Origin: a virus
Taxonomy: Duplodnaviria; Heunggongvirae; Uroviricota; Caudoviricetes
Length of the DNA stretch: 64,000 bases
IMG/VR virus record: IMGVR_UViG_3300031998_000020
Direction: 5' to 3' (one strand)
The number at the start of each line of letters is the position of its first letter. Position 1 is the stretch's first letter. The notes under the pieces are model-generated. The model made no database searches. It was not told the DNA's origin and worked only from the letters and a program-made list of their open reading frames with translations. Shown piece by piece: positions 1,587 through 27,932 of the stretch. The position numbers and the translations under genes are program-made.

Positions 1587-2366
1587 ATGGCATACTATTA
1601 TGGCTCTATGGGGCACACACAGAAAATGCAGGACCTCTATGCAGAGGAAATCAAGCATTCAGTAGATAATTCAAAGACGTTCAGAACCGCCAAGACAGTG
1701 GATTCTTGTCAGCAGTCTCCGACCCTGAAAAAAATCGTTGTCGAGAAACTTACCACAACCGAGGCTATTCTCAAATACAAGGACTATGCTGCATTGAATT
1801 TTGCCTCATACAAGTATCCAGGCGGTTCTTTCGGTAGACCTGCTGTACACCTTGCACAGGAGGAATATCTATGCAAGGATTCATTCTTGTATAACGTGCT
1901 CAATGATGACAAGTTCCAGGAGGACTATGCTTGGAATAACAAGCACAATAATGATGAACTCTATACCAATTGGTGTATATTCTCCAAGGATGTTGGCTTT
2001 GTCAATGATGAGGATGAGCTGGTAGCAAAGGCAGATATTCTCACCTGTGCTGCTCCTAATGCTTCTGCTGCACGGTATAGGAGGAATGTACTCGCAATAG
2101 ATTTTGTGATGAATTCAAGAATCGGCTTCGTTCTTGCCGTTGCTGCACAGATGGGTGTCAAGAACCTCATACTTGGTGCTTTTGGATGTGGCGTATTCGG
2201 TAATAATCCAAGTAAGGTGGCAAGCATGTTCATGTCTTTTCTAAAGTCCCATGATTATGGCTTCGAGAATGTTATTTTTGCCATTCCTGGTGGCGAAAAT
2301 TATGATAAGTTCAGGGAAGTAGTTGAGGACCCATATTGGAACTGGCTGATTAGTGAGAATTCCTAA
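1587..2366 (+). CDS. Bacterial-type poly(ADP-ribose) glycohydrolase-like macro-domain protein (DUF2263/TIGR02452-like).
   Basis: PGGSFGRPAVHLAQEEYLCKDS fits the PARG signature GGG-x6-9-QEE. GAFGCGVFGNNP fits the macro catalytic loop G.G.(F/Y)G.P. Confidence 0.65.
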   Translation: MAYYYGSMGHTQKMQDLYAEEIKHSVDNSKTFRTAKTVDSCQQSPTLKKIVVEKLTTTEAILKYKDYAALNFASYKYPGGSFGRPAVHLAQEEYLCKDSFLYNVLNDDKFQEDYAWNNKHNNDELYTNWCIFSKDVGFVNDEDELVAKADILTCAAPNASAARYRRNVLAIDFVMNSRIGFVLAVAAQMGVKNLILGAFGCGVFGNNPSKVASMFMSFLKSHDYGFENVIFAIPGGENYDKFREVVEDPYWNWLISENS

Positions 2367-2393
2367 ATGGTTATGTAAACGAACAATAGTATT

Positions 2394-3320
2394 ATGAAAG
2401 AAAAGAAATACAAGCTTTCAGAAACTACCCTGGAATGGAATGGTCATATTCTACACAGAATAGTAAGTGTTAGCACTTTCAAACTGATAAATGGGGATAT
2501 AGTCAATGCAGGTGACGAAGGTGGATGGGTTGAGTCGGAAGGTAACCTATCCCAGGAATATAGTTGCTGGGTTGATTGTGATGCCAAGGTTTATGGCGAT
2601 GCCATGGTTTTTGAACATGCTCTAATATCCGACCATGCAGAGGTTTTTGATGATGCAAAAGTTCATTCTAGTGCACGTATTTATGGCAGTGCAGAAGTTT
2701 TCGGGGAAGCAGAGGTTAGGGATTATGCTATAATGACTGAGTCTGCACAGGTCTATGGTAAAGCTTTCATATATGAAAACGCACGAATCCGAGGGAACGC
2801 AGAGGTATTTGGACTATGTGCAATATCTGGTAATGCCATGATTGCAGGTCGGGCCAAAGTTTATGACGAGGCAACGGTGTATGGCAATGCACAGGTCTTT
2901 GGCGATGTATGCGTTTATGATGAGGCATGTATTCATGGGTATGCACAGATTTTCGGTGATGCACAGGTCTATGGTTCTGCAACGATTAGTAATTATGCCT
3001 ACATTTGTGGTAAAACTAAAATTCATGGCTGTTTGTGTATTGACGGTCCTGCCGATATTAAGGGTGATGCCGAAATAACCAGCAATGAAGACTTTATCGT
3101 TTTCAGGAACCATTTCTCATCAGGTAGATGGTTTACTTGGACACGTAGCAATGACAAGTGGAGAGTCGGCTGTTTCTACGGCACTGGTAAGGAACTCATA
3201 GAGAAGGCTTACAAGGATAGTGACTTAAAAGGTAAATACTATGAGTCCTACGTTCAATTGGTTGAGAAATTTAAAGAAATCGGGCATAATGAAGAAAAAA
3301 GAGAGGCTCTACAGGATTGA
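2394..3320 (+). CDS. Hexapeptide-repeat (left-handed beta-helix) protein, paralog 1.
   Basis: About 28 consecutive hexads of pattern A-x-(V/I)-(Y/F/H)-G-x. The N-terminal (GHILHRI..GD.GGWVES) and C-terminal (FSSGRWFTWTRSNDKWRVGCFYGTGKELI) modules are shared with the 14612 and 29345 genes. Confidence 0.8.
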   Translation: MKEKKYKLSETTLEWNGHILHRIVSVSTFKLINGDIVNAGDEGGWVESEGNLSQEYSCWVDCDAKVYGDAMVFEHALISDHAEVFDDAKVHSSARIYGSAEVFGEAEVRDYAIMTESAQVYGKAFIYENARIRGNAEVFGLCAISGNAMIAGRAKVYDEATVYGNAQVFGDVCVYDEACIHGYAQIFGDAQVYGSATISNYAYICGKTKIHGCLCIDGPADIKGDAEITSNEDFIVFRNHFSSGRWFTWTRSNDKWRVGCFYGTGKELIEKAYKDSDLKGKYYESYVQLVEKFKEIGHNEEKREALQD

Positions 3321-3723
3321 ATGCACAGAGAAGCAATTAAGATTAATTGCCAGTTGTGTTGAAGACTGTCATCGTTTTATGGGCGGTCAGGTTGGGCTAT
3401 GGAATATAACTTCCATGCTTGATACTTACCGTGAACTTAAGGATGAATTGGAAAAACTCAAACCATTGGTAACGCCTGACTTGCCATTGAATGCAAGTTA
3501 TGGCTGGACAGGTAGCAGTTGCCCTAATGAGTACCAAAGGAAGTTTATTGCAGAAACTTATCCTATTTACAGAGAGATATTACATTTTTTTGCTTGTCAA
3601 AGGGATGATAATGGCTATAACGTGTATAAGAGTGATACATTAACCTGTAAAGAGGGTGGTGAGCCTATACGAATTAAAGAAATTAAAAGAAGAAGTATTA
3701 AGCCAAGCAATGATTATGTTTAA
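3289..3723 (+). CDS. Hypothetical protein (start chosen at MKKKERLYRIE).
   Basis: Long ORF; the start is uncertain and it overlaps the end of the upstream gene. Confidence 0.4.
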   Translation: MKKKERLYRIECTEKQLRLIASCVEDCHRFMGGQVGLWNITSMLDTYRELKDELEKLKPLVTPDLPLNASYGWTGSSCPNEYQRKFIAETYPIYREILHFFACQRDDNGYNVYKSDTLTCKEGGEPIRIKEIKRRSIKPSNDYV

Positions 3724-4078
3724 AATGATTTTCTCCATAGTAGCTATCATTATCGTAGTGATAGGCATCCGTCTCATGTATCTGATGTATCAATTCGAGA
3801 AGATACTAAAACGCAGTTGTCCAGACGATGATGGCATGAAGGATTCGGAAATGTGGAGACAGAAGGAGCAGGAAATACTCAAGAGGGACAACTACAGATG
3901 TAAGTATTGTGGTGGTAACTATAAGCTGAAAGTATATAGGAAATGCCATGAATATTATACCAGTAGGTTGGTTAAATTCCCTTGGGAATATTCAGACGAT
4001 TCTTATGTAACCGTCTGTGAGGATTGCTATAAGCTATCCAAAGAGGTCAAGGCATGGCTTCCACATCCATTAATATAA
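3710..4078 (+). CDS. Membrane-anchored protein with a Cys-rich C-terminus (CKYCGG...C..H...CEDC).
   Basis: N-terminal hydrophobic helix (FSIVAIIIVVIGIRLMYLMY). Cys/His cluster suggests Zn binding. ATGATTATGTTTAA start/stop overlap with the upstream gene. Confidence 0.45.
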   Translation: MIMFKMIFSIVAIIIVVIGIRLMYLMYQFEKILKRSCPDDDGMKDSEMWRQKEQEILKRDNYRCKYCGGNYKLKVYRKCHEYYTSRLVKFPWEYSDDSYVTVCEDCYKLSKEVKAWLPHPLI

Positions 4079-4374
4079 AATTACATTGTTATGAGTAAAG
4101 ATATAGCTTTTCATGATTATCACGACATATATGATATGAGGTATCATATGGGTGACTGGGAGGTAATCAATATAGAGACACTTTCTAATGGTTATTTTCG
4201 TGTTTGGCATTATGTTGAAGATTAAATCAAAATATACCAAGAAGCAAGTATTCAACAAATTTTATGATACTTGCAAGTTTGTAATTGAACCAAGCAAGGA
4301 TGGCAAGGGAGAAGGGGTAATCTTCGCTCCTTTCCTATTGCAGGATTGTGATAAAAACAAATGATTGCTTAGTT

Positions 4375-4770
4375 ATGGAGATTAAAGAAGTATACGTATC
4401 TTACGATGTGGCGAAGCTTTTATATGAAAGAGGATTTTACGAGCCCTGTGATATGTACTACAAGATGTCGTGTAAAAGCGATGAGCCAGAAGAGGTGCTG
4501 TGGGAAGAATTGAACTATGGGCAAGAAAGATATATTAAGGCTCCGACACACCAAATGGCAACTGACTGGCTTAGAGTAAGGCATGGGATATTCATATGTA
4601 TTACTTATGAGCCTGAACCTGGTGATAAGTTCGAGTGGCATGCTCTGATACGCAAAGATGGTAAAACAATAAAGTTTACTGACGGAATAAGAATTTCAGA
4701 TTATCACAGGCTTCTTGACCATGCCATCCGAGATGTTGTCGAGGGATGTATAGCTGTAAACATTGAATAA
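4375..4770 (+). CDS. Hypothetical protein, distant SKKLAEIL-family-like N-terminus (AKLLYERGFYEPCDMYYK).
   Basis: ORF with the first in-frame ATG at 4375. Weak resemblance to SKKLAEIL...ADMYYRD. Confidence 0.4.
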   Translation: MEIKEVYVSYDVAKLLYERGFYEPCDMYYKMSCKSDEPEEVLWEELNYGQERYIKAPTHQMATDWLRVRHGIFICITYEPEPGDKFEWHALIRKDGKTIKFTDGIRISDYHRLLDHAIRDVVEGCIAVNIE

Positions 4771-4815
4771 TTGTTAAAATATTTGGTGTTTTCAAATATT
4801 ATTTGTACCTTTGCA
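4770..4815 (+). promoter_or_regulatory. Bacteroidota-type promoter (TTTG 4782, TACCTTTG 4806).
   Basis: ttgttaaaatatttggtg ... TAccTTTG cassette. Confidence 0.65.
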
Positions 4816-4841
4816 TCCGTAACATAAATTATAAACAGGAA

Positions 4842-5711
4842 ATGATAAAATCAGTTGAAATAACAGATAATAAAAAGGCTACTTTAACGTACCTCCATAA
4901 TATAGAGGCATTTGCCAATGGTGCAAAGTTCAAATTCAAGCCAGGTGTGAATATCATTGTCGGAGAGAACGGCAGTGGTAAATCTACGTTGATTAACCTT
5001 ATTAGGGATTACACTCTCTGTAAAGACAGTATGGAAACTCATGTTCCTAATGTGCGTGAGCAGTTTGGTGTCCTTAAATTCCCGAATCTGTGGGGTAATA
5101 AGAGGTTTAATGAATCCGAAGGCTTCAACGACGGAGTCAAGGTAAAGGCTGATTACAAGGGTAAAGTTTTCAGGTTGATGTTTGATGACATTCAAAGGAA
5201 TGGGCATACTTTTGAAGAGAAAATCGAGAATTACAGCCTTCTGATGGACATGTCCTCAGCTTCAACAGGAGAGAAAATGATTACTGCATTGAGCTATTTA
5301 TTCAACTTCATGTATGGCAGGACGGATTATTTCTTCCCCATCAAAGAACTGGAAAAAATCCAAGAAAGTTCAAATGACCTTTGGTCGGAAAGAATCAAAC
5401 AGCTTCTTGATTATTACAAGAAGAATAGTATCAAGATTTCAAAGAAGAACTATGAATATACCGTTCTTATGGATGAGCCAGACAGGAATCTTGACATATA
5501 CCACATAAAAGAGTTATACGGCATACTGAGTGAGCGAAAGAAGCAAACACAGTTGATTACTGTTATACATAATCCTTTGCTTATCTATAAGCTGACCAAG
5601 CTTCCGCAGAGCAAGAAGGTAAACTTCGTAGAATTAACACCCAACTATATTGATACCATTAAGGAGTTCTATAAGTGGGCTGACAACAAGAGAATTTACA
5701 CTAAAATATAA
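4842..5711 (+). CDS. Small ABC/AAA_21-type ATPase (Walker A GENGSGKST; D-loop LMDEPDRNLD).
   Basis: P-loop VNIIVGENGSGKSTLINLI and DEP...LD motif. The first ATG after the promoter is at 4842. Confidence 0.7.
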   Translation: MIKSVEITDNKKATLTYLHNIEAFANGAKFKFKPGVNIIVGENGSGKSTLINLIRDYTLCKDSMETHVPNVREQFGVLKFPNLWGNKRFNESEGFNDGVKVKADYKGKVFRLMFDDIQRNGHTFEEKIENYSLLMDMSSASTGEKMITALSYLFNFMYGRTDYFFPIKELEKIQESSNDLWSERIKQLLDYYKKNSIKISKKNYEYTVLMDEPDRNLDIYHIKELYGILSERKKQTQLITVIHNPLLIYKLTKLPQSKKVNFVELTPNYIDTIKEFYKWADNKRIYTKI

Positions 5712-5715
5712 AAAC

Positions 5716-6096
5716 ATGACAAAGAAAGATTTAGCAATAAAGGCATTCAAGAATCAACTAGAGTTGATTCTTGAACTGTATCCCGATGTCAGGGACATGA
5801 TGTATGAGAATGAGGAGTCAATTACGTTCCATAATGATATGAATGGTAGATTGACATTAAAATTCCTACCTTCTGGTAAGACAGAAGTCGAGTGTTTTTT
5901 GCAGACCAGTCCAGGCTTTGAAATCTTTACTGTCGATGAGGATTTTAATGTCTGTGAGGAGAAATACAAACAATATGAAGGATACGCTAAACGTCTAATT
6001 GTAAACGCCATGCTTGAATGGCATGAATGCCAAGACATAATAAAAAGGGTCTTTGATAGTTACCGTAGCCTTAAATACTTAGCAGAAGAAGAGTAA
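5716..6096 (+). CDS. Hypothetical protein.
   Basis: ORF immediately downstream of the ATPase; start MTKKDLAIKAF. Confidence 0.45.
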   Translation: MTKKDLAIKAFKNQLELILELYPDVRDMMYENEESITFHNDMNGRLTLKFLPSGKTEVECFLQTSPGFEIFTVDEDFNVCEEKYKQYEGYAKRLIVNAMLEWHECQDIIKRVFDSYRSLKYLAEEE

Positions 6097-6183
6097 TGAT
6101 AAGAGTGGCATTAGAGATAATTGGCTATTATCTCCTTTTTGGGGGCATAGCATATTGTATAATCTCATATTTTGACAAAGAAA

Positions 6184-6474
6184 ATGAATAAAACAATTTT
6201 AATATTACTCTCAATATTTGTATTGGGTTCTTGTACGAGAGTTAAAATTGATAACCCAGGGAATAAAGAAGAGATTGAAAATTTTAAACAACAAGTGCAG
6301 AGAGCCCAAGATAGGGGTGGCCTAAAATATGATGATTTAATTAAAGAATTTGAGTACAAAGGTCATCAATACATTTGGTTTGAACAGTCACTTCGACAGG
6401 GTTACGCTGGTTATGGATTTGCTGGTGTAGTTCACAATCCAGATTGTAAGTGTTTTAAAAAAGTGGAGGAATAA
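6184..6474 (+). CDS. Lipoprotein (signal peptide plus LGSC lipobox).
   Basis: MNKTILILLSIFVLGSC... Confidence 0.55.
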   Translation: MNKTILILLSIFVLGSCTRVKIDNPGNKEEIENFKQQVQRAQDRGGLKYDDLIKEFEYKGHQYIWFEQSLRQGYAGYGFAGVVHNPDCKCFKKVEE

Positions 6475-6477
6475 GTT

Positions 6478-6669
6478 ATGGAAAAGTACATTCACAGCAA
6501 AACAGGTAAGCCATACTCTTTGATAAGTGAGAAACTGCTGGTGAAACAGGACGGAGTGTGGAGCAATGAATTCGTGCTTTATAAGGCAGAATATCCTAAT
6601 GAGGATGGACCGTTCTTTGTAAGGACGAAGGATGATTTCTTTAATCACTTTGAAAAAGTAAAGGAGTAA
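6478..6669 (+). CDS. Hypothetical small protein.
   Basis: ORF with an AGGA sequence upstream. Confidence 0.4.
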   Translation: MEKYIHSKTGKPYSLISEKLLVKQDGVWSNEFVLYKAEYPNEDGPFFVRTKDDFFNHFEKVKE

Positions 6670-6672
6670 GTT

Positions 6673-6972
6673 ATGGTAAATTTATCAGATTTCCTTAAAG
6701 AAAATGAAGGTCCAAAGACCACTACTACAGAGAAGTACAAGTGGATAAAGACATCAACAAATCAAAGGCCTCCAGATGGCCATTGGGTTGTCGTGACTAG
6801 ACCTATTTTCAGTGTGTTCAGAATGTTGGTCGGTGCCTATTGTACTAAAAAAGACTGCCTTGTTATGGATGAGGGTACCGAGCCGATGATTATGACCAGT
6901 CATTTTATGCTTATCGATGAGGATGGCGAAGATTTTTCCCGAATAAATTTCGATTATTTAGATAAGACATGA
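6673..6972 (+). CDS. Hypothetical protein, KYKWIKT(S/E)xNxRPP family.
   Basis: Paralog of 7231..7785 (KYKWIKTSTNQRPPDGHWVVV vs KYRWIKTECNLRPPHLQWIIV). Confidence 0.55.
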   Translation: MVNLSDFLKENEGPKTTTTEKYKWIKTSTNQRPPDGHWVVVTRPIFSVFRMLVGAYCTKKDCLVMDEGTEPMIMTSHFMLIDEDGEDFSRINFDYLDKT

Positions 6973-7229
6973 CACGCACAGAAGAAATCATAAAAGCAGC
7001 CGACGAAGCTTCTGATAAGGAGGAGTATGTGGATGGTTGGGAAAGAAACCGTTGTTGGGAGTATTTCATCCAAGGTGCTGAATGGGCCGACAAGACCATG
7101 CTTGACAAAGTTGGTGACTACCTGTCAAAATTGAAACGTTGCAAGTTAACGTCAATGGCTGGTCTCTTCAACATGAAAGTGTTCTCAGAAGAAGACATCG
7201 AAAAACTTCGTAAATCAATGGAGAAATAA
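6969..7229 (+). CDS. Hypothetical protein, AEWADKTMLDK family.
   Basis: About 85% nt identity over roughly 150 bp with 58672-58822, and a similar protein tail (VFSEEDIEKLRK). Confidence 0.6.
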   Translation: MTRTEEIIKAADEASDKEEYVDGWERNRCWEYFIQGAEWADKTMLDKVGDYLSKLKRCKLTSMAGLFNMKVFSEEDIEKLRKSMEK

Positions 7230-7230
7230 T

Positions 7231-7785
7231 ATGAGTGATAAAACGTCAAACAATAAGCCTCAGAGGTTTTTAACCTACGAGAAATACAGGTGGATAAAGA
7301 CAGAGTGTAATCTACGGCCTCCTCATCTGCAATGGATAATAGTTTATCGGGACATTTACGATTTCAAGAAGATGGATATCGGCCTCTACCACCAGGAAGA
7401 TGACTGTTTCCGTTCAGACACCCTGGACGTACCAATGGACAGTATAACCGCTTTTATGGCTGTAGATGAGCCTGACAGGATATTGCTGAACATGGAGCAG
7501 TCACTTGGCTACGAAATCCCTGACCCTGTAACGATAAGCCGTAAGGAAGACGTTGTAGAGACTTCTATATATCCAAAGGACCCAAAGCTGGGAAATGATT
7601 TCAATTTGGGTGATTATATCGGTGACTATCTTAAGAAGCATCTATCAGTCCAGGTTTTATGGTGGGGCAATGAGGTTTCTGTAAAACTCAAACTTGACGG
7701 TGATATAATATCAGAAGATAAAGACTGTTTTGATGGTCGCATCTATTCTATGGTAAATCTTAACAATGTAAAATTAAAAGAATGA
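7231..7785 (+). CDS. Hypothetical protein, KYKWIKT family (longer paralog).
   Basis: Paralog of 6673..6972. Confidence 0.55.
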   Translation: MSDKTSNNKPQRFLTYEKYRWIKTECNLRPPHLQWIIVYRDIYDFKKMDIGLYHQEDDCFRSDTLDVPMDSITAFMAVDEPDRILLNMEQSLGYEIPDPVTISRKEDVVETSIYPKDPKLGNDFNLGDYIGDYLKKHLSVQVLWWGNEVSVKLKLDGDIISEDKDCFDGRIYSMVNLNNVKLKE

Positions 7786-7958
7786 CATACGACGAGTTTA
7801 TGAACACTCCGTTCAAAAATGACGGACAAGGCAATCCTGTAGCATTAAAAGATGTATTGCCAACGCTTACAAGGGCTCAGAGGAAGTATATCCAAAGTAG
7901 GCTCAAGAAAGGAAGAATTGTACACATTGAAGAAATATTTAATATCGGGGAGGGTTAA
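7782..7958 (+). CDS. Small hypothetical protein (58 aa).
   Basis: ATGA start/stop overlap with the upstream gene; otherwise unsupported. Confidence 0.3.
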   Translation: MTYDEFMNTPFKNDGQGNPVALKDVLPTLTRAQRKYIQSRLKKGRIVHIEEIFNIGEG

Positions 7959-8183
7959 GATATGACAGCGAATCAATTTGTAACGGAATGGTTTTTGCCT
8001 TGTTTTGCAATGGTATTGATGACAGGAGGTGCTGTTGGAGTGTTGGTGGCATTATACAAAATGGCTAAAGACACATGACACCTTATGATTTTCTGATACA
8101 GTGGTTTGGACCGATATTTGTTATGGTTCTATGTTGCTTCTTTTTGGTTTTTGTATTTAAAACAAGAAAGGAATGGTGGAAAA

Positions 8184-8456
8184 ATGATTAAATTTACAAT
8201 CAAGATAGTAACCCCTATGGATTTATGGTATAGATTCAAAGGGTGGCTAATGCAAGCAAGACAAGATGACTGTAAAGGCTATGTCACACAATATAGGGAG
8301 TTTATTAAGGAAGACTTCATAAACTCTCTGGAAAGTGATGCAAATCAGGATTTGTCAGAGTATAGAGAGAGGATTATCCAAATATTGGATATTTCCTTGA
8401 AGGATTCGGAACGAGATATCGAGAACATGATAATGAGAATTCAACCAAAAATATAG
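8184..8456 (+). CDS. Hypothetical protein (MIKFTIKIV...).
   Basis: First ATG of the ORF; AATGATTAA overlap with a short membrane ORF (8075..8191) upstream. Confidence 0.4.
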   Translation: MIKFTIKIVTPMDLWYRFKGWLMQARQDDCKGYVTQYREFIKEDFINSLESDANQDLSEYRERIIQILDISLKDSERDIENMIMRIQPKI

Positions 8457-8457
8457 T

Positions 8458-8495
8458 AAAAGAATCTTCCTGCAAAGAGTGGGAAGATTTTTTTG
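8458..8495 (+). terminator. Intrinsic terminator hairpin (AGAATCTTCC...GGAAGATT plus T-run), first copy of the conserved terminator-promoter module.
   Basis: Inverted repeat followed by TTTTTTT; same module as at 33616 and 44704. Confidence 0.65.
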
Positions 8496-8504
8496 TTAAT
8501 GAGT

Positions 8505-8548
8505 GTTAAAAAATTTGGAGGTTTCAAATAAACTTTGTATCTTTGCAA
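8505..8548 (+). promoter_or_regulatory. Bacteroidota-type promoter (TTTG 8513; TATCTTTG 8538).
   Basis: gttaaaaaatttgg ... TAtcTTTG. Confidence 0.65.
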
Positions 8549-8596
8549 ACAGAAATCAAGGCGTGGTGCTGAGATACAAATAAAAACAGAAATAAA

Positions 8597-9325
8597 ATGA
8601 ATTGTGCAAATGGAATCAGATTTGATAGTGGTGACAGTAACGAAACTTATGTATTCGTTAAGAAAGTCGGCAATCAAACTTGTGAAGATTGTGATTTCTA
8701 TGGCAAATGTAATGCATACCATACAGTGCAGAATCGCAAGTCACCATGCATAGAGGTATTAGGTAATCCAAATTATCTACTCAAAAAACTAAATGGTGTA
8801 TACGTAGACCATCATACACCCGATAATACAGAAAACGTAGTAGTAAAAAAGGAAACGACAAAGGACAAGACAGAGGACATGGCTAAAAGTGTTTATTGCG
8901 AAGGTAGCAAGAAGAATGGTATGGGTGTGATTCGTGCCCTTGAAAGGCATGGAGGTATAAACATGCACAACCATGATGGCAAAGAGGATGATGTACTATT
9001 CTACATTCATCCTACCACGGATGTTATTGAGGTAGCTCGTGATGGTTCACACATGGAATTGATTCGTGTTGTATTCGACAAGATTAATCCAATCAAAATG
9101 TCAGGAAGAGCTAAATGTGGAGGGGAATATTTTACGATATACACTGCTGACGGTCTTCTCAAAGTTTTGGCTCGTCTTGATGACAGGCATGCTAGAGATG
9201 ATTCGTTTTATGAAGTTGGCAATTATTTTAAGGATGAGAGTGTTGCTAAAAAGATATGCGATGACTTCAACGATATCATTAAGCAGAATCGTGAAAAGTT
9301 ACTTTCCCAAGAGACGGAAATGTAA
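8597..9325 (+). CDS. Hypothetical protein with a C-terminal GNYF module (FYEVGNYFKDESVAKKICDDF).
   Basis: Shares the E.GNYF(K/A)..E module with the 28350, 28819 and 36087 genes. Confidence 0.55.
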   Translation: MNCANGIRFDSGDSNETYVFVKKVGNQTCEDCDFYGKCNAYHTVQNRKSPCIEVLGNPNYLLKKLNGVYVDHHTPDNTENVVVKKETTKDKTEDMAKSVYCEGSKKNGMGVIRALERHGGINMHNHDGKEDDVLFYIHPTTDVIEVARDGSHMELIRVVFDKINPIKMSGRAKCGGEYFTIYTADGLLKVLARLDDRHARDDSFYEVGNYFKDESVAKKICDDFNDIIKQNREKLLSQETEM

Positions 9326-9366
9326 TATGTCATTCAAAATCATTTTTTAAAATAAAGTAAAACAAT

Positions 9367-9636
9367 ATGGAAATTGCATATGTAATGTGTGTTGTGAGCT
9401 GGCTGCTTCTTGGCTGTGTCGCACAAGATTTTATAGGGGATAAAGATGATAGTACCGAAATGATGCTTGGACGTGTTTTGTTCTGGCCAGTTTATCTTGC
9501 TATCGGAGTCGTAATAAGTGTGATTATTTTACTTATTTTGGCAACCCGTTTCTGTGGTAAGGTTCTATGGGAAACCTTAAAAGAGCTGAGAACAATGATT
9601 AAATTTGGTTACAACGAGATAAAAGACTGTTTTTAA
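9367..9636 (+). CDS. Small membrane protein (2 TM).
   Basis: Hydrophobic segments CVVSWLLLGCVA and VYLAIGVVISVIILLILA. Confidence 0.45.
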   Translation: MEIAYVMCVVSWLLLGCVAQDFIGDKDDSTEMMLGRVLFWPVYLAIGVVISVIILLILATRFCGKVLWETLKELRTMIKFGYNEIKDCF

Positions 9637-9647
9637 AAAGTGAGAAT

Positions 9648-10130
9648 ATGGAAAAAATAACATTATTTGCTACAGGTATTATCATAGGACTGTTATACCT
9701 GTCATTAGGCAGAATTATCACTCATTGGCATTATGTCAGGGGAAATACGACAAGCGGTGCTATCTGCACATGGTTTTGGCCGTTGGTTATTGTCTTGAGA
9801 GTTTCGGTAATGATATGGAGACTATTATGCAATGCTCTTCGTATATTATGGGCCATCCCTGAGATATTTTGGGAAGCTAATTTCTGTGCTTGTGATGCCT
9901 TTGTCGACAAATTCAAAAGTGGAATTGAAGTCTATAAGGAAAATAGGATTCCACTTAAAAAAGGTGATACGGTACGATGGAGACGATATAAGGACCAAGG
10001 TGACTATATCGTTGAAAAAATAGACAGAGATTTCTTCTGGGGAGACTGGTATTTCATAAACGGTGGCTATGGCACTGTAACGGCTAAGAGAGGGGAATTA
10101 ATAAAAGTCAACAAAACAAAATCAGTTTAA
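9648..10130 (+). CDS. Membrane protein.
   Basis: N-terminal hydrophobic helices. Confidence 0.45.
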   Translation: MEKITLFATGIIIGLLYLSLGRIITHWHYVRGNTTSGAICTWFWPLVIVLRVSVMIWRLLCNALRILWAIPEIFWEANFCACDAFVDKFKSGIEVYKENRIPLKKGDTVRWRRYKDQGDYIVEKIDRDFFWGDWYFINGGYGTVTAKRGELIKVNKTKSV

Positions 10131-10132
10131 AA

Positions 10133-10657
10133 ATGAATAAAGATATAATAAATCTTGGAAAAGAACTTGCTTTCTTGCTTCGTCATGACAAGGAAGCATT
10201 CAGTAAAGGTTTGATAGACCATAACGGATGGCGTAATGTATCTGAGCTATTGAGTCTTGGCTATACACAAGAGACACTTGACGAGATAGTTGAGACCAAT
10301 GACAAGAAACGCTATGAATACAATCAAGACAAAAGCAAGATTAGAGCCCGACAAGGCCATTCTATTCCTGTTGATGTAGAATTAAAGGAAACTGTTCCAC
10401 CAGACATTTTGTATCATGGAACTGCAACACGATTCCTCGATTCAATCAATAAAAGTGGACTATTGCCGAAAGACAGGCTTTATGTCCATCTATCACCAGA
10501 TTTCGAGACTGCTATAAAAGTCGGCTCAAGACATGGCAAGCCAACAGTGATAACAATCGACTGTCAAAAGATGGTTGCTGATGGGCACAAGTTCTATTTG
10601 TCAAACAACGGAGTTTGGCTTACGGGTCCAATCGAGCCAAAATATTTTATAAAATAA
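10133..10657 (+). CDS. kptA: RNA 2'-phosphotransferase Tpt1/KptA.
   Basis: Near motif-by-motif match to KptA: LAFLLRH, DKKRYEY, IRARQGHS, YHGTATRFLDSINKSGL, LYVHLSPDFETAIKVGSRHGKPTVITI, NNGVWLT. Confidence 0.9.
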   Translation: MNKDIINLGKELAFLLRHDKEAFSKGLIDHNGWRNVSELLSLGYTQETLDEIVETNDKKRYEYNQDKSKIRARQGHSIPVDVELKETVPPDILYHGTATRFLDSINKSGLLPKDRLYVHLSPDFETAIKVGSRHGKPTVITIDCQKMVADGHKFYLSNNGVWLTGPIEPKYFIK

Positions 10658-10664
10658 CAAGAAA

Positions 10665-10931
10665 ATGGATAATTTTATAGATGTTTCTGGAGCACCTTTG
10701 GCTATTGGTGACAAAGTTGCAACCCAATACCAACAGCTTTTCAGGATTGGTAGAATTGAAGGTTTCACCAAAAAGAAAGTGATTGTGGCATTCGATTTCA
10801 GCGCACGAGGTAATGAATCGCCTACGTCAATGGAATATGCCAAGATAGCACCCTGGAAAATCGCCAAGGTTGCAAATCAAGACTGTACCCTACAGACGTA
10901 CTTCGATGTAGCCAATATGTATAACCCTTAA
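10665..10931 (+). CDS. Hypothetical protein.
   Basis: ORF in the operon context. Confidence 0.45.
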   Translation: MDNFIDVSGAPLAIGDKVATQYQQLFRIGRIEGFTKKKVIVAFDFSARGNESPTSMEYAKIAPWKIAKVANQDCTLQTYFDVANMYNP

Positions 10932-10942
10932 CAAATTGTAAA

Positions 10943-11344
10943 ATGGCTTTATTTTTAGTAATAACGATAGTAGTTTGGATTGGTTGGGGAATCGCTTGCT
11001 GGTTTGCAGAATACAATGGCGAATCAAACAAGTTCTGGATATGCATTCTCATGGGTGGCTTCTTTATCTTTGGTGGAATATGGAAGTTCTTGCGAGCTTC
11101 AACCAATAGACATTTTTGGAGAGATTTCAAATATGCACTCAAGAATGCATTCACCACCTACGAAATCGGGGATTGTGTGATGGTGATAAGCGACAATAAA
11201 CAATATACCTACACAGGCGAAGCTTCGGACTGTTGGGGTAATGTCACAGTAACACTTAAGGATTCTTGTGGATTCCAGAGGCTTGTCAAGAAAAATGAAA
11301 TCACGAAAATAAGTTCAAGAAACAACAAATCCACAGAAGATTAA
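10943..11344 (+). CDS. Membrane protein (2 TM N-terminal).
   Basis: MALFLVITIVVWIGWGIACWF...ILMGGFFIFGGIW. Confidence 0.5.
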   Translation: MALFLVITIVVWIGWGIACWFAEYNGESNKFWICILMGGFFIFGGIWKFLRASTNRHFWRDFKYALKNAFTTYEIGDCVMVISDNKQYTYTGEASDCWGNVTVTLKDSCGFQRLVKKNEITKISSRNNKSTED

Positions 11345-11361
11345 AGTTGTAATAAAAAAAA

Positions 11362-11406
11362 TATAAGTTCGGCAATAGATTAACTTTACTGCCGAACTTA
11401 TATCGT
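11362..11406. terminator. Bidirectional intrinsic terminator (12-bp perfect inverted repeat ATAAGTTCGGCA/TGCCGAACTTAT).
   Basis: Lies between convergent genes, flanked by an A-run on the 5' side and T-rich sequence on the 3' side. Confidence 0.75.
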
Positions 11407-11610
11407 TTATTCATCCTCGTCAAACTCAAACTCTGCATCTCCAACCTCTTTGGAAAAATGAGGACCGTGAGGTGGTGGGGGTGGAAAGAATGGAAAGAAT
11501 GGTCCATGTGGATGATGTGGATAATGTGGCTCATAACCACTGGAAGGGCACATAATTACTGGCTCTACCTTTCTAGCCCTTAATGTTGGGGCTGAATAAA
11601 TTTTCTTCAT
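11407..11610 (-). CDS. Small His/Pro-rich protein with an acidic C-terminus (HYPHHPHGPFFPFFPPPPPHGPHF...EFEFDEDE).
   Basis: Minus-strand ORF between a minus-strand promoter-like motif and the bidirectional terminator. Confidence 0.5.
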   Translation of the reverse strand: MKKIYSAPTLRARKVEPVIMCPSSGYEPHYPHHPHGPFFPFFPPPPPHGPHFSKEVGDAEFEFDEDE

Positions 11611-11654
11611 CTTCTTGTATAAAACTTTTACTGATTATGTTAATAAATACGATG

Positions 11655-11690
11655 CAAAGGTACAAATTATTGGAAATATAGCCAAATATT
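11655..11690 (-). promoter_or_regulatory. Putative minus-strand Bacteroidota-type promoter (TTTG - 20 nt - TACCTTTG on the reverse complement).
   Basis: Reverse complement reads ...atatTTGGctatatttccaataatttgTAccTTTGcatcg. Confidence 0.4.
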
Positions 11691-11702
11691 TTTTCTAAAA
11701 AA

Positions 11703-11748
11703 ATGTTAATAAATTTGGTGGTATAAAAAATATTGTATACCTTTGCAA
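11703..11748 (+). promoter_or_regulatory. Bacteroidota-type promoter (TTTG 11714; TACCTTTG 11738).
   Basis: gttaataaatttggtgg ... TAccTTTG. Confidence 0.65.
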
Positions 11749-11776
11749 TGTAAAACAAATAAAAAACAAAATTATC

Positions 11777-12043
11777 ATGGTCAAATTTGAAACATATGAC
11801 ATTCTAAAGGAAACTTACGATACTGGTAAGTATGACATCTTCTATGAGAATGGTAAGATTAAGTATGAGGTAAAGCATATTGGCTCCACCATTCTTTGCT
11901 ATGACCCTGAGAGAAACCTCGGCATGGGTGCAGTAAACAACTTTGACATCAAATGCTTCTATGGCATTGAAAAGCCAGAGCCTGTTATTGAAGAGGTGGC
12001 TGAACCAGAAGAGAATAAGGAAAGAGAATACGAAACAGATTAA
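11777..12043 (+). CDS. Hypothetical protein.
   Basis: ORF downstream of the promoter. Confidence 0.5.
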   Translation: MVKFETYDILKETYDTGKYDIFYENGKIKYEVKHIGSTILCYDPERNLGMGAVNNFDIKCFYGIEKPEPVIEEVAEPEENKEREYETD

Positions 12044-12059
12044 TCAAAATTAAAAAAAT

Positions 12060-12524: not shown

Positions 12525-12540
12525 ATCAATTAAAATCATT

Positions 12541-14588: not shown

Positions 14589-14611
14589 TCAGAATGTTAA
14601 ATAAGCAAACA

Positions 14612-18619: not shown

Positions 18620-19177
18620 ATGTGTTTACTATGCAAAAAAAGCGATAAGGTCAAAGTAGCTTTGGAGGACAAAAAATGCTATAAAGTCCTTGAACTTACA
18701 GAAGATGGAAAGTTGAAATCACCTTATTATGATTTTTTCTACGAAATCGGAAAGGTGTATGAAGGTGCTATCAATTTTGATTTGGCAACTTATAACTATT
18801 GTCCATCATTGGAAATTGTTTCTTTTGAAGAATATTGCAAACATCACAAAGGTTATGTTGATGGTGATGGTAATAAAAAAATAATATACCTTCCTTCTTA
18901 CGACAGCTATGTTGATGATAATGGTGTTGAAGTGTCAGAATATGCTATTGGCCAAGGTTTCCATAGTTGTGACTCCTTAGAAATCTGTAAGTCAATTTTT
19001 TACGCTGAGTTTCAAGGGATACTAAAAGGAACTGGTAACTTAGTGATTGCTGAATGTGTAATACCAAGAGGCAATTTCTATTATACGGGATATACGAATT
19101 ACAAAATATGTGCTCCATGCTATGCAAGCACTGCCCTGAAAATAGAAAAGATAGTGTTTAACTCTAAAGAACAATAA
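18620..19177 (+). CDS. Met-Cys-start family, member C.
   Basis: MCLLCKK...KKCYKVL...GQGFHSC...CVIPRGNFYYTG. Confidence 0.7.
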   Translation: MCLLCKKSDKVKVALEDKKCYKVLELTEDGKLKSPYYDFFYEIGKVYEGAINFDLATYNYCPSLEIVSFEEYCKHHKGYVDGDGNKKIIYLPSYDSYVDDNGVEVSEYAIGQGFHSCDSLEICKSIFYAEFQGILKGTGNLVIAECVIPRGNFYYTGYTNYKICAPCYASTALKIEKIVFNSKEQ

Positions 19178-19179: not shown

Positions 19180-19776
19180 ATGTGTTTAGTATTAAGAAGC
19201 GGAATAAGAGATTTTAAGTTTGCTCAAAAACCAGTGAAGTGTTACAAGATTCTCAAGGTTGAAGACGGACAATTGAAGGCACCCATGGCTAAATTCACCT
19301 ATCAGGTGGGTAAAACCTATGAGTGTCCTTTGAACAACGAAGTCAGTGAGCATACTTGGAGTCAGATATTCCCACGATTCGCCCAATTTCATAAGTGCTA
19401 TCATATACCAAATCAAGAAGAGAAGTTTTTGGTTGTAGAAAAATATTCAATAGGCCAGGGTTTCCATAGTTTCAAACACCTTGAAGCATGTTTATTTTTT
19501 CTGGAACATCGAAAGGCATGGGAAAATGGCGAATCTAGATATGCTGTGGCAGAATGTACAATCCCAAAGTATAGTGGATATTACGAGGGCCATCAGCCTA
19601 TAATGTTCAAGAACCATGACGGTTATGCCAGTGACACTTTTAGGATAGATAGGATTTTGGACAAAGAAACTCTTGACAAGTTGATGATAGTGCACGATGA
19701 ATACCGCAATCTCAATAAGGAAGATAAGCAGAGATTGTACGAAGAGTGTATTAATGATATGGAGGATAAGCAATGA
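19180..19776 (+). CDS. Met-Cys-start family, member D.
   Basis: MCLVLRS...VKCYKIL...GQGFHSF...CTIPKYSGYYEG. Confidence 0.7.
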   Translation: MCLVLRSGIRDFKFAQKPVKCYKILKVEDGQLKAPMAKFTYQVGKTYECPLNNEVSEHTWSQIFPRFAQFHKCYHIPNQEEKFLVVEKYSIGQGFHSFKHLEACLFFLEHRKAWENGESRYAVAECTIPKYSGYYEGHQPIMFKNHDGYASDTFRIDRILDKETLDKLMIVHDEYRNLNKEDKQRLYEECINDMEDKQ

Positions 19777-21989: not shown

Positions 21990-22050
21990 ACTGCTCGTAG
22001 TTTTTTAAATCATTTTTATCGTTTAATTTTCAAATTTGTTACTTACAACA

Positions 22051-23859
22051 ATGGTAGAAGTAAAGCTTAACAACAGTAACAAGAATCATTTCTATGGTAT
22101 GAGGGAGTGTCTCTATCTCTTTCAGAACCTCAATACCAATATCACGGAAGCTATGCTTGACAGAGCATGGGCAGAAGTAAAGGATGACAAGCAGAAGAGG
22201 GAGCTCTTTTTCTCCCTTATCTTCTCTATAGGTGATATTACTGCACGTCAGCACAACATCTTCAAGGGTGTTAAGATGGATAATGGCGGTAATGCAAACA
22301 GAGATTCTTTCTGGACTATCTTTAATTGGATAAAGGACAGAAATTGGGCTCAGTTCGTAAAGTTCCTCCATGCAGGTCTCTTCAATGAGTATCAGTGTTT
22401 CGACACACTGTTCCGTTCACGAGTCAAGACATGTAGCGGTAGGGTAGTTAAGGTGTATGACATCTTTGCTGACCAGACATACCGTAATGAGCTTGCCAAC
22501 TACGTGTACTCTATTGTTAATGGTAATAATACCTTTAACAAGCACCTTGTGGCTAAGTTCTTGACACTTCCTCGTCCATCAAAGAGAACAGGTCATACCA
22601 AGATGCTTGATGAGACAATGGCCGTTATGAAGAATAAGGCCAAGTTCCTTACCAAGCTGTCAGACATGGTAGGTTGGGAGTATGATGGCTACAACTTCAT
22701 CGGCTATCGTAAGTGGAGAAAGGAATATAACACTAACCTTGAGTCCGTTCTTTTCTCATCAGGTGCTATTAATGGTTTTACTCAGGACCAGTTCTTCAAG
22801 TGGCTTGAGCAACTGCCATCACAGGCAAGGTTCAGAGTCAGGAACAAGGTATCCTTCTCTAAGAAGGAAGATGATACTCTCAAGTGGCCAGTTCTTAAGG
22901 AGTGGTATAACAAGTGGGAGAATCACAAGGAGGAAATGCAAGCTGAACAGAGAAAGCTTGAGGAGAAGGTTCGACAGGGTGGAGCCTCTGAGGAAGACCT
23001 CAAGAAGCTTGCCAAGGTCAAGAAGGAGGCCAAGATTAACACTGGTGCTACAAACTTCAAGGAAATCTATGAGTCCATCCTTAGCGGTAAGGCAGATGCT
23101 CTTGCAGTTGAAAGCTTTATCCAGAACAAGGTGAACCTTCCTTATAATAGCCTGGTTATTATTGACGATTCTGGCTCAATGCGTGGGGCACCATTCAACT
23201 TTGCCACATTCCTGGCAACTGTATGCTTGATGAAGAACCCTGATGACGAGGCACGAAACCTCGTAGGCTTCTTTGCTAACGATTCACATTGGCATGCTTA
23301 CATTGATTCAAAAAAGCAGCCAAGCCCAAATAGTATCGTTAGAACTGGAAACATCAAGTGTGAGGCAGAACCTCTCATAGACCCTACACTTAGCTTTATG
23401 GAGAACTATAAGCGATTTGATTCTTTTGCTCACTCTGTGTTCAGTTGTCGTGGTACACATATTGATTCAATCGCAAGAGGTCTGAATGAAGCTTGTAAGA
23501 GAAATCCTCAGATGCTTGATGCACTCAAGAACTATCCAGTTTGGACCATTGTATCAGATGGTGATTTTAACAATCTGTATAGTCCAGAAGCATCTTTGAA
23601 TGACCTCATGAGACAGTGCCAGGAGTACTTTGGCTTCAAGCCTTTTATCGTAGGTATCGCTGTTGATATGTATAATAGCACTCCTAAGTATGAAAGGTTT
23701 AGCGGTATAGAGAATTTCCTCTACATACCAGCCAACCCTACTCTCATTGAGCAGTTCCTTACAAATTTCAGGGATATGGACACATTCGATGTCTATGCAC
23801 CACTACAGGGTTTGTACAGGACTAACAGGTATGAACTGGTTCGCCAGAACGTGATTTAA
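22051..23859 (+). CDS. Large protein with a vWA/MIDAS motif (IIDDSGSM).
   Basis: LVIIDDSGSMRGAPF is a classic DxSxS MIDAS motif. About 600 aa, otherwise unknown. Confidence 0.65.
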   Translation: MVEVKLNNSNKNHFYGMRECLYLFQNLNTNITEAMLDRAWAEVKDDKQKRELFFSLIFSIGDITARQHNIFKGVKMDNGGNANRDSFWTIFNWIKDRNWAQFVKFLHAGLFNEYQCFDTLFRSRVKTCSGRVVKVYDIFADQTYRNELANYVYSIVNGNNTFNKHLVAKFLTLPRPSKRTGHTKMLDETMAVMKNKAKFLTKLSDMVGWEYDGYNFIGYRKWRKEYNTNLESVLFSSGAINGFTQDQFFKWLEQLPSQARFRVRNKVSFSKKEDDTLKWPVLKEWYNKWENHKEEMQAEQRKLEEKVRQGGASEEDLKKLAKVKKEAKINTGATNFKEIYESILSGKADALAVESFIQNKVNLPYNSLVIIDDSGSMRGAPFNFATFLATVCLMKNPDDEARNLVGFFANDSHWHAYIDSKKQPSPNSIVRTGNIKCEAEPLIDPTLSFMENYKRFDSFAHSVFSCRGTHIDSIARGLNEACKRNPQMLDALKNYPVWTIVSDGDFNNLYSPEASLNDLMRQCQEYFGFKPFIVGIAVDMYNSTPKYERFSGIENFLYIPANPTLIEQFLTNFRDMDTFDVYAPLQGLYRTNRYELVRQNVI

Positions 23860-23917: not shown

Positions 23918-23965
23918 AGTTACGAAAATATTTGGTAGTATCAGATTTTTTTAGTAACTTTGCAA
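23918..23965 (+). promoter_or_regulatory. Bacteroidota-type promoter driving the noncoding locus (TTTG 23931; TAACTTTG 23955).
   Basis: aaatatttggtag ... TAacTTTG. Confidence 0.6.
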
Positions 23966-25324: not shown

Positions 25325-25327
25325 ATT

Positions 25328-26663: not shown

Positions 26664-26685
26664 TCTAATAACAAATATACAAAAT

Positions 26686-27309
26686 ATGGATAGACAGCAA
26701 TTCATGCAGCAAGCTGCATTAAGGCTTATTACTGGTGGCTCATCTATGAGCCCAGAAGAAGTATACAAATATACTAAGGAATTGGGTAATTTGTTTTTCC
26801 CTGTTGAAAAAGTATCTAAACCAGATGAGGCAGTTGAAACACCATTCCATCCTGGGGATATTATCTGCTACATGTATCGTTCAATTATATTTTGCGATTC
26901 TATTCAAGACGATTGTGTGACAAGTAGGTTTGAATATGATATCAAAAATGATTCTTTAGAGGTGTATGATACAGCCAGGTTGTATCTCATGAATCTTTCT
27001 AAACCTGCCGATGTTAGCCAAAGGATAAAATTCATAGAGACTTTGTATAAGCATGGCCATTGTATTGACACTGATAACAATTCCATACGTCCATTTCCAC
27101 AAGAGGGGGACATTATCACAAAGAGGGGTACTCTTTATCCTGTGTTTCAGTTAGGTAAAAAAGCAGTGGGCTGGTATGATGGCTATATGTTCACGTGTTG
27201 TGACGATGTTGCCAACAGTGGTTTCTTGACTGATAGTGACATAAGAGAAAACTATGTATTGTTTAGGCCAAAAAAACTTGGTTCAGGAGACCCTTCGAAA
27301 GGTGCGTAA
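26686..27309 (+). CDS. Hypothetical protein.
   Basis: ORF. Confidence 0.45.
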   Translation: MDRQQFMQQAALRLITGGSSMSPEEVYKYTKELGNLFFPVEKVSKPDEAVETPFHPGDIICYMYRSIIFCDSIQDDCVTSRFEYDIKNDSLEVYDTARLYLMNLSKPADVSQRIKFIETLYKHGHCIDTDNNSIRPFPQEGDIITKRGTLYPVFQLGKKAVGWYDGYMFTCCDDVANSGFLTDSDIRENYVLFRPKKLGSGDPSKGA

Positions 27310-27313
27310 ACAG

Positions 27314-27356
27314 AAAAGAGACCATTGAGAGATTAATTCCCTTGATGGTCTCTTTT
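27314..27356. terminator. Bidirectional intrinsic terminator (AAAAGAGACCAT...ATGGTCTCTTTTT).
   Basis: 12-bp inverted repeat between convergent genes. Confidence 0.7.
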
Positions 27357-27359
27357 TGC

Positions 27360-27932
27360 TTAGAACTTGTGCTGTACAATAACATCAACAGCCTCTTCCA
27401 GTGACTTTACTCGTAAGATGTTAAGACTTTTGTCATCGATATACCTATTGTATGGCGTATCAACCATTATTTTCTTGGAATGGTCTGATTCATTGAGAAT
27501 GAATTCTGGGTTGTCATCAATCAGATAGTCACCATGAACCATCCATTTATCTTTCGTAAAGCAAATATCATCATAATAAAGGTGATGACGGTCAAAGAAA
27601 TCCAATGTGAACTCCTTGTTCTGTTTGTTGAATTGCCAGGTTACGATAACAACCTTGTAACCTTTCTTATGGAGAAGGTCAAGAGCTTGTTTAACGCCAT
27701 CGAAAGGCTTAGAAATACACCTAAAAACACCATCTGCATGGTCTTCAAAAAAGAACTGCCATGGTGTACAATTCAACTGTTCCTTGACCTTGGGGAATGA
27801 CTTGTTAATGTCATAGTCGGTGATTGATTCAGGGCTGATATGTTCCTTGAACTGCCATTGATAGATTTGGCACATTCCACCTATCATGTCCCTTATGACA
27901 CCATCCACATCTACTTTAACTATTTTACTCAT
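27360..27932 (-). CDS. 5'(3')-deoxyribonucleotidase-like HAD hydrolase (NT5C family).
   Basis: VKVDVDGVIRDMIGGM (HAD motif I DxDGV), GVKQALDLL and YLIDDNP align with NT5C-family motifs. Confidence 0.7.
   Translation of the reverse strand: MSKIVKVDVDGVIRDMIGGMCQIYQWQFKEHISPESITDYDINKSFPKVKEQLNCTPWQFFFEDHADGVFRCISKPFDGVKQALDLLHKKGYKVVIVTWQFNKQNKEFTLDFFDRHHLYYDDICFTKDKWMVHGDYLIDDNPEFILNESDHSKKIMVDTPYNRYIDDKSLNILRVKSLEEAVDVIVQHKF

Follow-up and report, generated by a model that had tools for sequence, protein, structure and literature searches.

Can NAD+- and ADP-ribose-linked enzymes whose genes lie scattered along a phage genome serve one common task, and if so, which? The question is raised by a stretch of 64,000 nucleotides (nt) from the virus record IMGVR_UViG_3300031998_000020 (Caudoviricetes), hereafter the window. 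A reading made from the sequence alone had described four of its genes as an enzyme set, serving either to counter a host ADP-ribosylating defence or to repair phage RNA or tRNA. Open reading frames (ORFs) were present exactly where this sequence-only reading had placed them, on the same strands, and their products (lengths in amino acids, aa) were assigned as follows.

1587..2366, plus strand: PARG, a bacterial-type poly(ADP-ribose) glycohydrolase (DUF2263/TIGR02452) macro-domain protein, 259 aa
10133..10657, plus strand: Tpt1/KptA, RNA 2'-phosphotransferase of an NAD+-dependent family, 174 aa
15431..16759, plus strand: RlaP-family (PF10127) Pol-beta nucleotidyltransferase, 442 aa
27360..27932, minus strand: NT5C-type HAD 5'(3')-deoxyribonucleotidase, 190 aa

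Our answer is that PARG, Tpt1 and RlaP most likely act jointly in restoring tRNAs or other RNAs cut or modified by host ribotoxins. In its full form, namely that the window holds dispersed genes of an NAD+-dependent kit for RNA (tRNA) end repair, of the type that Iyer, Aravind and co-workers reported from jumbo phages, with the PARG-type macro enzyme in charge of ADP-ribose clean-up and NT5C unrelated to it, the proposal stands in our judgement evenly balanced between right and wrong. The repair role is favoured because of the published activities of RlaP, KptA and PARG, together with the tight clusters formed in other phages with a CCA-adding enzyme, SIR2 or Thg1. All four window proteins belong to the families named above, with match scores far above the chance level, and appear to retain intact catalytic residues.

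The product of 1587-2366 is a bacterial-type PARG macro protein. It matched PF10021 (PARG_cat_microb) in Pfam (E 5.8e-21, 75.8 bits; cut-off 23.5) and TIGR02452 in NCBIfam (167 bits; cut-off 50), and phmmer retrieved the PARGs of Deinococcus radiodurans (5zdf, E 3e-24) and Thermomonospora curvata (3sig, E 3.6e-21). The catalytic loop reads P78-G79-G80-S81-x9-Q91-E92-E93, with the QEE codons at 1857-1865, and the diphosphate loop GAFGCGVFGN (residues 197-206) aligns with GAWGCGVFRN of 5zdf; residues G79, G80, Q91, E92, E93, G197, G200, C201, G202, V203 and F204 are invariant in 44 homologues. The textbook PARG signature is GGG-X6-8-QEE, from which the window protein (GGS-x9-QEE) departs by Ser in place of the third Gly and by a spacer of 9 residues, two longer than that of the D. 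radiodurans enzyme (DrPARG). For an AlphaFold model based on the 44 homologues (pLDDT 92.9), the top Foldseek matches in PDB were 5zdf and 3sih (TM 0.74-0.79, E ~1e-18), other macro domains reaching TM <=0.5. The GGS-x9-QEE motif and macro loop pointed out from the sequence are present, and the protein falls inside the macro/PARG fold.

The gene at 10133-10657 is Tpt1/KptA, as had been claimed without reservation. Its product matched PF01885 (E 1.6e-43, 149.3 bits; cut-off 26) and phrog_5470 (E 1.6e-57), and aligned end to end with Runella Tpt1 (7kw8; residues 5-173 on 4-176, E 1.3e-41); the score against the NCBIfam equivalog NF002014 was 194.5 bits, under the strict naming cut-off of 239. 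The catalytic tetrad R17-H18-R60-R115 is intact and is invariant in 42 homologues. Its aligned partners are R16, H17, R64 and R119, which we take to be the tetrad in the numbering of the Runella enzyme.

The gene at 15431-16759, described beforehand by its GS...DxD motif as a nucleotidyltransferase (NTase), belongs to the RlaP family and is neither a CD-NTase/SMODS protein nor an antibiotic NTase. The latter two are excluded because PF10127 was the only Pfam NTase family matched (E 4.5e-20, 72.8 bits; cut-off 23; residues 15-134 only), no other Pfam family appearing at E<=0.01, and because the match to phrog_388 was full-length (residues 15-432, E 2.4e-49). The motif corresponds to G22-S23 and D34-E35-D36, of which G22, S23, D34 and D36 are invariant among homologues, as are E58, E70 and E87; the most probable third carboxylate is D65, where strand 66-70 begins. 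The protein is laid out as an N-terminal NTase core, a poorly modelled insert (residues ~265-284) and a C-terminal helical domain. Its model (pLDDT 81) matched phage nucleotidyltransferases in BFVD, including gp218 of phage G (E ~1e-13), and in PDB gave no more than weak Pol-beta matches. Kanamycin NTase and MNT yielded insignificant fold matches only (E 0.03 or worse).

The minus-strand gene at 27360-27932 was correctly recognised as NT5C-type HAD, with matches to PF06941 (E 1.1e-23, 84.5 bits; cut-off 24.8) and HAD_2 and with HAD motif I at D8-V-D10-G-V. NT5C is most likely a deoxynucleotide-pool enzyme, separate from the ADP-ribose and RNA genes; it has no link to NAD or ADP-ribose, and its membership in the proposed set was dropped.

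For the activities of the three remaining families we rely on the literature. RlaP adds one or two nucleoside monophosphates (1-2 NMP) to an RNA 3'-OH and rescues over-trimmed tRNA (PMC12776372). Tpt1 moves an RNA 2'-phosphate to NAD+, forming ADP-ribose-1'',2''-cyclic phosphate, and it also ADP-ribosylates 5'-phosphates of RNA and DNA (PMC8120803, PMC11833690). The bacterial PARGs SCO0909 and DRB0099 remove from RNA both the 5'-phospho-ADP-ribose (5'-P-ADPr) made by Tpt1/KptA and the 2'-O-ADP-ribose (2'-O-ADPr) made by RhsP2, and bacterial-type PARGs remove KptA/Tpt1-made 5'-phospho-ADP-ribose from DNA as well as RNA (PMC11833690). In jumbo phages, RNA repair has been assigned to KptA with 2H and Macro proteins, and to RlaP with ligases, CCA-adding enzymes and Thg1 (PMC7824862, PMC9503650).

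From these activities we infer how the three enzymes may cooperate in the window phage, and on what. Tpt1 with NAD+ would strip 2'-phosphates from broken or rejoined RNA ends or from positions close to them, releasing nicotinamide and ADP-ribose-1'',2''-cyclic phosphate, and RlaP would restore one or two nucleotides missing from the 3' end. The PARG-type macro enzyme would remove ADP-ribose from nucleic acid, including the 5'-phospho-ADP-ribose caps that arise by Tpt1's own side reaction and that would block ligation; it may also remove 2'-O-ADP-ribose placed on RNA by host toxins. The remaining enzymes of such a pathway (ligase, cyclic phosphodiesterase, and CCA-adding enzyme or Thg1) would come from other parts of the genome or from the host.

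The same families were followed into other phages by scanning IMG/VR with alignments of all three, which gave at least 218 stretches with Tpt1 and at least 313 with PARG; the best 80 Tpt1 loci, the best 80 PARG loci and 16 RlaP loci were examined, 10 kb being taken as the neighbourhood. Both bacterial-type PARG and Tpt1 are widespread among gut phages, and tight clusters were observed. On the 173-kb contig IMGVR_UViG_3300045988_142974 (L091; 9974-17974), the genes for Tpt1, RlaP (PF10127, 1.2e-13), an HD-domain CCA-adding enzyme and SIR2 abut or overlap on the same strand. A PARG gene (PF10021, 1.1e-26) follows 3.4 kb beyond SIR2, and a C5 DNA methylase gene likewise lies within the 4 kb after SIR2; the island from Tpt1 to PARG keeps to one strand and fits within 8 kb, and upstream of it a conserved 751-aa protein, function unknown, is encoded; for the ORFs of unknown function adjoining this PARG, no solved-structure relatives were found. 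Rearranged islands of the same type (RlaP-CCA-SIR2-methylase-PARG; Tpt1-CCA-SIR2) occur on dozens of gut-phage contigs. In locus L059 (7700-9796) a 698-aa PARG fusion is encoded directly upstream of Tpt1, and in L106 an RlaP gene whose product shares 50% identity with the window RlaP is preceded, 600 nt upstream, by a PARG-like gene. Thg1 was located 3.5-7.7 kb upstream of RlaP in relatives of 370-400 kb and, in further loci, near Tpt1 or ~0.5 kb downstream of PARG. A chromosomal Tpt1 of Muribaculaceae, 70% identical to the window Tpt1, is clustered with an AAA_33 kinase and Thg1. In phiCD211, Dickeya AD1 and three IMG/VR loci, the genes around Tpt1 were orphans and uninformative. NT5C homologues were seen near Tpt1 (within 10 kb) in 5 of the 80 Tpt1 loci, all of these being relatives of the window phage.

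These islands invite a bolder idea, that PARG is part of a recurrent ligase-independent island for tRNA-end repair and de-ADP-ribosylation in gut phages, of which the window holds a loosened copy; we regard this as unlikely. Such an island would combine an NAD+-consuming Tpt1 or SIR2 and tRNA-end polymerases (CCA-adding enzyme, RlaP, Thg1) with PARG, which would take ribose- or phosphate-linked ADP-ribose off RNA, and its purpose would be to counteract host toxins by which tRNA ends are trimmed, phosphorylated or ADP-ribosylated. For experiments, the L091-type Tpt1-RlaP-CCA-SIR2...PARG island is a better entry point than the window.

Several observations weigh against cooperation of the three genes in the window. 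PARG and Tpt1 are separated by 7,767 nt (17 ORFs) and Tpt1 and RlaP by 4,774 nt (8 ORFs); a further 10,601 nt (21 ORFs) lie between RlaP and NT5C, the latter on the opposite strand. The four genes form no operon and no physical set, and the intervening ORFs are mostly orphans. In plus-strand intergenic gaps TAnnTTTG, the Bacteroidota -7 promoter consensus, occurs 2.8 times as often as overall (2.06/kb versus 0.73/kb), and candidate promoters of this kind lie between the three genes at 8538, 11710, 11738 and 14578, others being at 23955 and 24422. Together with a terminator-like hairpin between Tpt1 and RlaP (11574-11594), the candidates at 8538, 11710/11738 and 14578 suggest separate transcription units, and PARG, Tpt1 and RlaP are probably transcribed separately. 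Neither sigma-70 promoter-like sites (71, against 57.1 ± 7.9 in shuffled sequence) nor terminator-like sites (12, against 9.5 ± 3.2) were clearly above the control in number.

Conservation and gene content count on the same side. Gene order around each of the four genes is conserved no further than in the ~90% relative L005; PARG, Tpt1, RlaP and NT5C are no conserved module. The ORFs flanking PARG and Tpt1 (1149-1577, 9648-10130, 10665-10931) have no homologues among the genes beside PARG or Tpt1 in other lineages. In phage Lak-A1, PARG and RlaP lie ~229 kb apart with no common neighbours, and no Tpt1 was found in Lak phages at E<=1e-5. Pfam was run on 69 window ORFs, nearly all of those of at least 125 aa: none of the 69 matched an RNA ligase, 2H phosphoesterase, Pnkp, CCA-adding enzyme, Thg1, sirtuin or ADP-ribosyltransferase, in line with the remark in the sequence-only reading that no RNA ligase was visible. 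An RNA ligase was also absent within 10 kb of the RlaP homologues in the relatives L014 and L016. A screen of the 64-kb window for the paired HxT/S motifs of 2H proteins detected none, tblastn of the L091 proteins against the window did not find the partner enzymes, and the window contains no tRNA genes. In a relative whose PARG is 67% identical, RecA, DnaB and Dam methylase genes lie downstream and no Tpt1 is present; among the IMG/VR loci, the genes most often conserved beside phage PARG encode C5, N4/N6 and Dam DNA methyltransferases, a hint that PARG may rather belong to a counter-defence island.

The statistics of co-localisation are weak. Under a conservative null, with one copy of each gene per genome placed uniformly and lineages defined at 70% identity, Tpt1 and RlaP lay within 10 kb of each other in 5 of 15 lineages (P=0.03), the only pair beyond chance. 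For PARG, the corresponding figures were 5 of 16 lineages both with the CCA-adding enzyme (P=0.11) and with RlaP (P=0.11), and with Tpt1 1 of 16 and 2 of 15 lineages, which is at chance. The lineages in this test are moreover not independent of one another.

The main rival explanation, which is compatible with RNA repair, holds that PARG is a stand-alone counter-defence enzyme functionally untied to Tpt1 and RlaP, and that its targets are RhsP2-like 2'-O-ADPr RNA, DarT-like DNA modification or PARP/PART-like polymers, carried by RNA, DNA or protein of the phage or its host. Bacterial PARGs give cells protection against RhsP2, a toxin acting on RNA (PMC11833690), and phage orphan antitoxin-like hydrolases acting against DarT supply a precedent (PMC11825919). 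Most of the phage PARG stretches from IMG/VR (at least 313) have no Tpt1 nearby in the loci examined, Lak phages retain PARG without Tpt1, and the C5, N4/N6 and Dam methyltransferases beside phage PARGs are typical anti-restriction island genes. We nevertheless consider this explanation rather doubtful, in view of the co-localisation of phage PARGs with CCA-adding enzyme, RlaP, SIR2 or Thg1 in several lineages and of their adjoining Tpt1 (L059) or RlaP (L106). A PARG-type macro protein also differs from the DarG and NADAR types shown to reverse base-linked ADP-ribosylation of DNA, and the fold search ranked bacterial PARGs first, with other macro domains far behind. To our knowledge, no host ADP-ribosyltransferase target has been described for Bacteroidales phages.

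The four genes might also have no common function, being independent accessory genes that were grouped as members of the dozen or so recognisable among ~130 ORFs. Just 17 of the 69 scanned ORFs gave a Pfam match above the family cut-off, the genes are dispersed with one on the other strand, synteny is not conserved past L005, and most pairwise co-localisations are within chance under the conservative null. Such independence is distinctly improbable in our view: tight clusters exist in independent lineages (L091, L059, L106), Tpt1 and RlaP lie closer than expected (P=0.03), and across the phage clade these two proteins (65-77% and 56-71% identity, respectively) are far better conserved than their neighbours. 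There is, besides, a direct biochemical relation, in that the Tpt1 product is a substrate of bacterial PARG (PMC11833690). The same relation underlies a further explanation, in which Tpt1 deliberately ADP-ribosylates 5'-phosphate ends, creating a protective or inhibitory cap that PARG removes. Both reactions occur in vitro, Tpt1/KptA modifying 5'-phosphorylated RNA and DNA and PARGs reversing it (PMC11833690, PMC8120803). We think a capping and decapping pair very unlikely, since 5'-phosphate ADP-ribosylation may be a side reaction of unknown physiological relevance (PMC11833690), PARG and Tpt1 co-localise at chance, and the recurrent partners of Tpt1 are RNA-end repair enzymes or, in one lineage, NAD+ salvage genes.

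Of the two roles proposed in the sequence-only reading, RNA or tRNA repair is thus the one favoured by published activities and by the clusters elsewhere; the genes remain no conserved module, with PARG and Tpt1 near each other at chance frequency. The identities of the four members of the "enzyme set" stood, while the physical set (gaps of 4.8-10.6 kb, 8-21 ORFs) did not. By itself the window locus is the expected kind of jumbo-phage accessory content, and the gene families, their occurrence in jumbo phages and the logic of the pathway are already published; the PARG-type macro enzyme among them is modestly new. If the three enzymes do cooperate in RNA repair, they would offer a natural and testable setting for Tpt1 5'-phosphate ADP-ribosylation and its reversal by PARG, both so far described in vitro only, and the PARG-type macro enzyme would join the NAD+-dependent RNA-repair schemes proposed for jumbo phages. 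The physiological role of bacterial-type PARG in bacteria has been called enigmatic (PMC11833690).

Some further features of the three families were noted in other phages. The L059 fusion consists of an N-terminal domain (FVFGSN..GxHGGGAA), a central PARG domain (GGGVMLGAGAQEE; GAFGCGAYRN) and a C-terminal domain. In Bacillus phage G (L013, 5740-6570 and 9936-10415), the PARG-like gp114 is encoded 3.4 kb from a second macro protein with an Appr-1-p processing domain, gp122, in a region adjoining the genes for GMP reductase, thymidylate synthase and dihydrofolate reductase (DHFR); the same phage carries the RlaP-like gp218. In one Tpt1 lineage, comprising 32 loci on IMG/VR gut-phage contigs, Tpt1 is included in an NAD+ salvage cluster of NAMPT, a 157-aa ORF, Tpt1, two small ORFs and NadE (L064, 8042-12582; L099, 8054-13881), and in L063/L064 an RlaP-like gene is located 3.5 kb downstream of it. 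This cluster resembles phage NAD+-reconstitution pathways and connects Tpt1 in phages with the supply of NAD+. In the 370-400 kb relatives (L014, 1538-2338; L016, 4747-5553; and adjoining genes), Thg1 and a PIF1-type helicase are encoded upstream of RlaP, and NUDIX, thymidine kinase and sugar epimerase genes are near RlaP in L014 or L016; none of these, nor Thg1 or PIF1, is present in the window. In Lak-B phages (e.g. MK250021.1, 544084-546303), the RlaP homologue was matched as two pieces spanning 2.2 kb, the gene itself being ~1.26 kb. This points to ~0.9 kb of inserted sequence (an intron or homing element) that Lak-A and Lak-C lack.

The source of the window is a jumbo phage of ~350-410 kb from gut or rumen, probably with a Bacteroidales host, because relatives were found on large contigs with sheath and tail-tube genes, and because of the Muribaculaceae Tpt1 and the Bacteroidota promoter motif. 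The contigs of 280-413 kb carrying RlaP and Tpt1 homologues contain phage sheath and tail-tube genes; metagenomic homologues are 56-71% identical for RlaP (several on contigs of 280-400 kb) and 65-77% for Tpt1. The 23.9-kb Logan contig SRR33917149_8234 (L005) is collinear with window positions 17-13083 at ~90% protein identity. The closest GenBank phage matches for PARG and RlaP are Prevotella Lak megaphages (42-43% identity); stop-codon recoding was checked because of these matches, and readthrough of TAG, TGA or TAA joined nothing relevant, all three serving as stops. We regard the window as an accessory region of a jumbo phage, rich in orphans, with ~130 short ORFs mostly on a shared strand.

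Other genes of the window are as follows. Between PARG and Tpt1, a 302-aa SMC_N/ABC-type ATPase (4803-5711) shows weak likeness to RecF, Rad50, ABC-F and PtuA, and its gene includes the sole stretch matching GenBank phages by nucleotide (56 nt, 89% identity, in a crAss-like phage gene for an AAA ATPase). A 242-aa ORF (8597-9325) lying shortly before the Tpt1 block is conserved in L005 over its first 76 residues alone, the L005 ORF being 99 aa, which represents an indel or cassette difference. Three paralogous beta-solenoid proteins (YdcK-repeat or bactofilin-like; 41-47% identical to the L005 copy) are encoded directly after PARG (2394-3320), directly before RlaP (14594-15418) and 1.4 kb from NT5C (29345-30427). 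A second paralogous family, of 140-200 aa, has copies at 1149-1577, 17201-17623, 18620-19177, 19180-19776, 53164-53589, 53574-54011 and 61712-62209. At least three of them (1149, 18620, 19180) start with MCL and share KCYK and GFH motifs, and 19180-19776 gave a faint DUF7666 match; the copy at 1149-1577 is directly upstream of PARG, and in L006-L008 (PARG 67% identical) copies occur on both sides of PARG. The 607-aa protein at 22036-23859 has a C-terminal vWA domain with an invariant MIDAS (D377-S379-S381...T474...D508) and a weak match to phrog_850 ("RNA-binding protein"); its profile of 53 homologues matched Ro60/TROVE structures in the vWA MIDAS segment only (E 0.04-0.1), and a Ro-like RNA-binding protein is a possible, unproven assignment. 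Further downstream lie an 850-aa BspA-type leucine-rich-repeat protein (48430-50982, minus strand), in which stretch the GC skew changes sign, and an SPFH/Band_7 protein (51691-52512) with a 53% identical homologue 6 kb downstream of RlaP in the 397-kb relative L016.

Among known systems, the KptA-2H-Macro wing of jumbo-phage RNA repair (PMC7824862, PMC9503650) is comparable in its intact KptA/Tpt1, a macro ADP-ribose hydrolase in the region, the RlaP NTase and the jumbo-phage context. The window differs in that its genes are dispersed, with neither 2H nor RNA ligase detected in 64 kb, and in that its macro protein belongs to the bacterial PARG type and not to the Appr-1''-p-processing MacroD type. 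The RlaP proteins of the RtcB-RlaP-RtcA operons of Pseudomonas fluorescens and P. aeruginosa and T4 NrdC.11 (PMC12776372) share with the window protein PF10127, the GS...DxD core and the helical C-terminal domain. At 442 aa, however, the window RlaP carries an insert of at least ~100 residues and matches the Pfam profile in its N-terminal part only; it also lacks the adjacent ligase of the operons, the recurrent neighbours in its relatives being Thg1 and PIF1 helicase and, in L091, the CCA-adding enzyme and Tpt1.

In D. radiodurans, the operon DRB0100-DRB0099-DRB0098 encodes a ligase, a bacterial-type PARG and HD-Pnk (PMC11833690). The window resembles it in placing a bacterial-type PARG among nucleic-acid end-healing enzymes, and the window PARG matches DRB0099 structures (E 3e-24, TM ~0.75); no ligase or polynucleotide kinase is near the window PARG, and its partners, Tpt1 and RlaP, are several kb off. 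As with the phage orphan DarG/NADAR-type hydrolases that act against DarTG (PMC11825919), an ADP-ribose-removing enzyme is carried by a phage without a cognate toxin. The window enzyme, in contrast, belongs to the PARG clade, whose known substrates are ribose-ribose or phosphate-linked ADP-ribose and not thymidine or guanosine adducts of DNA.

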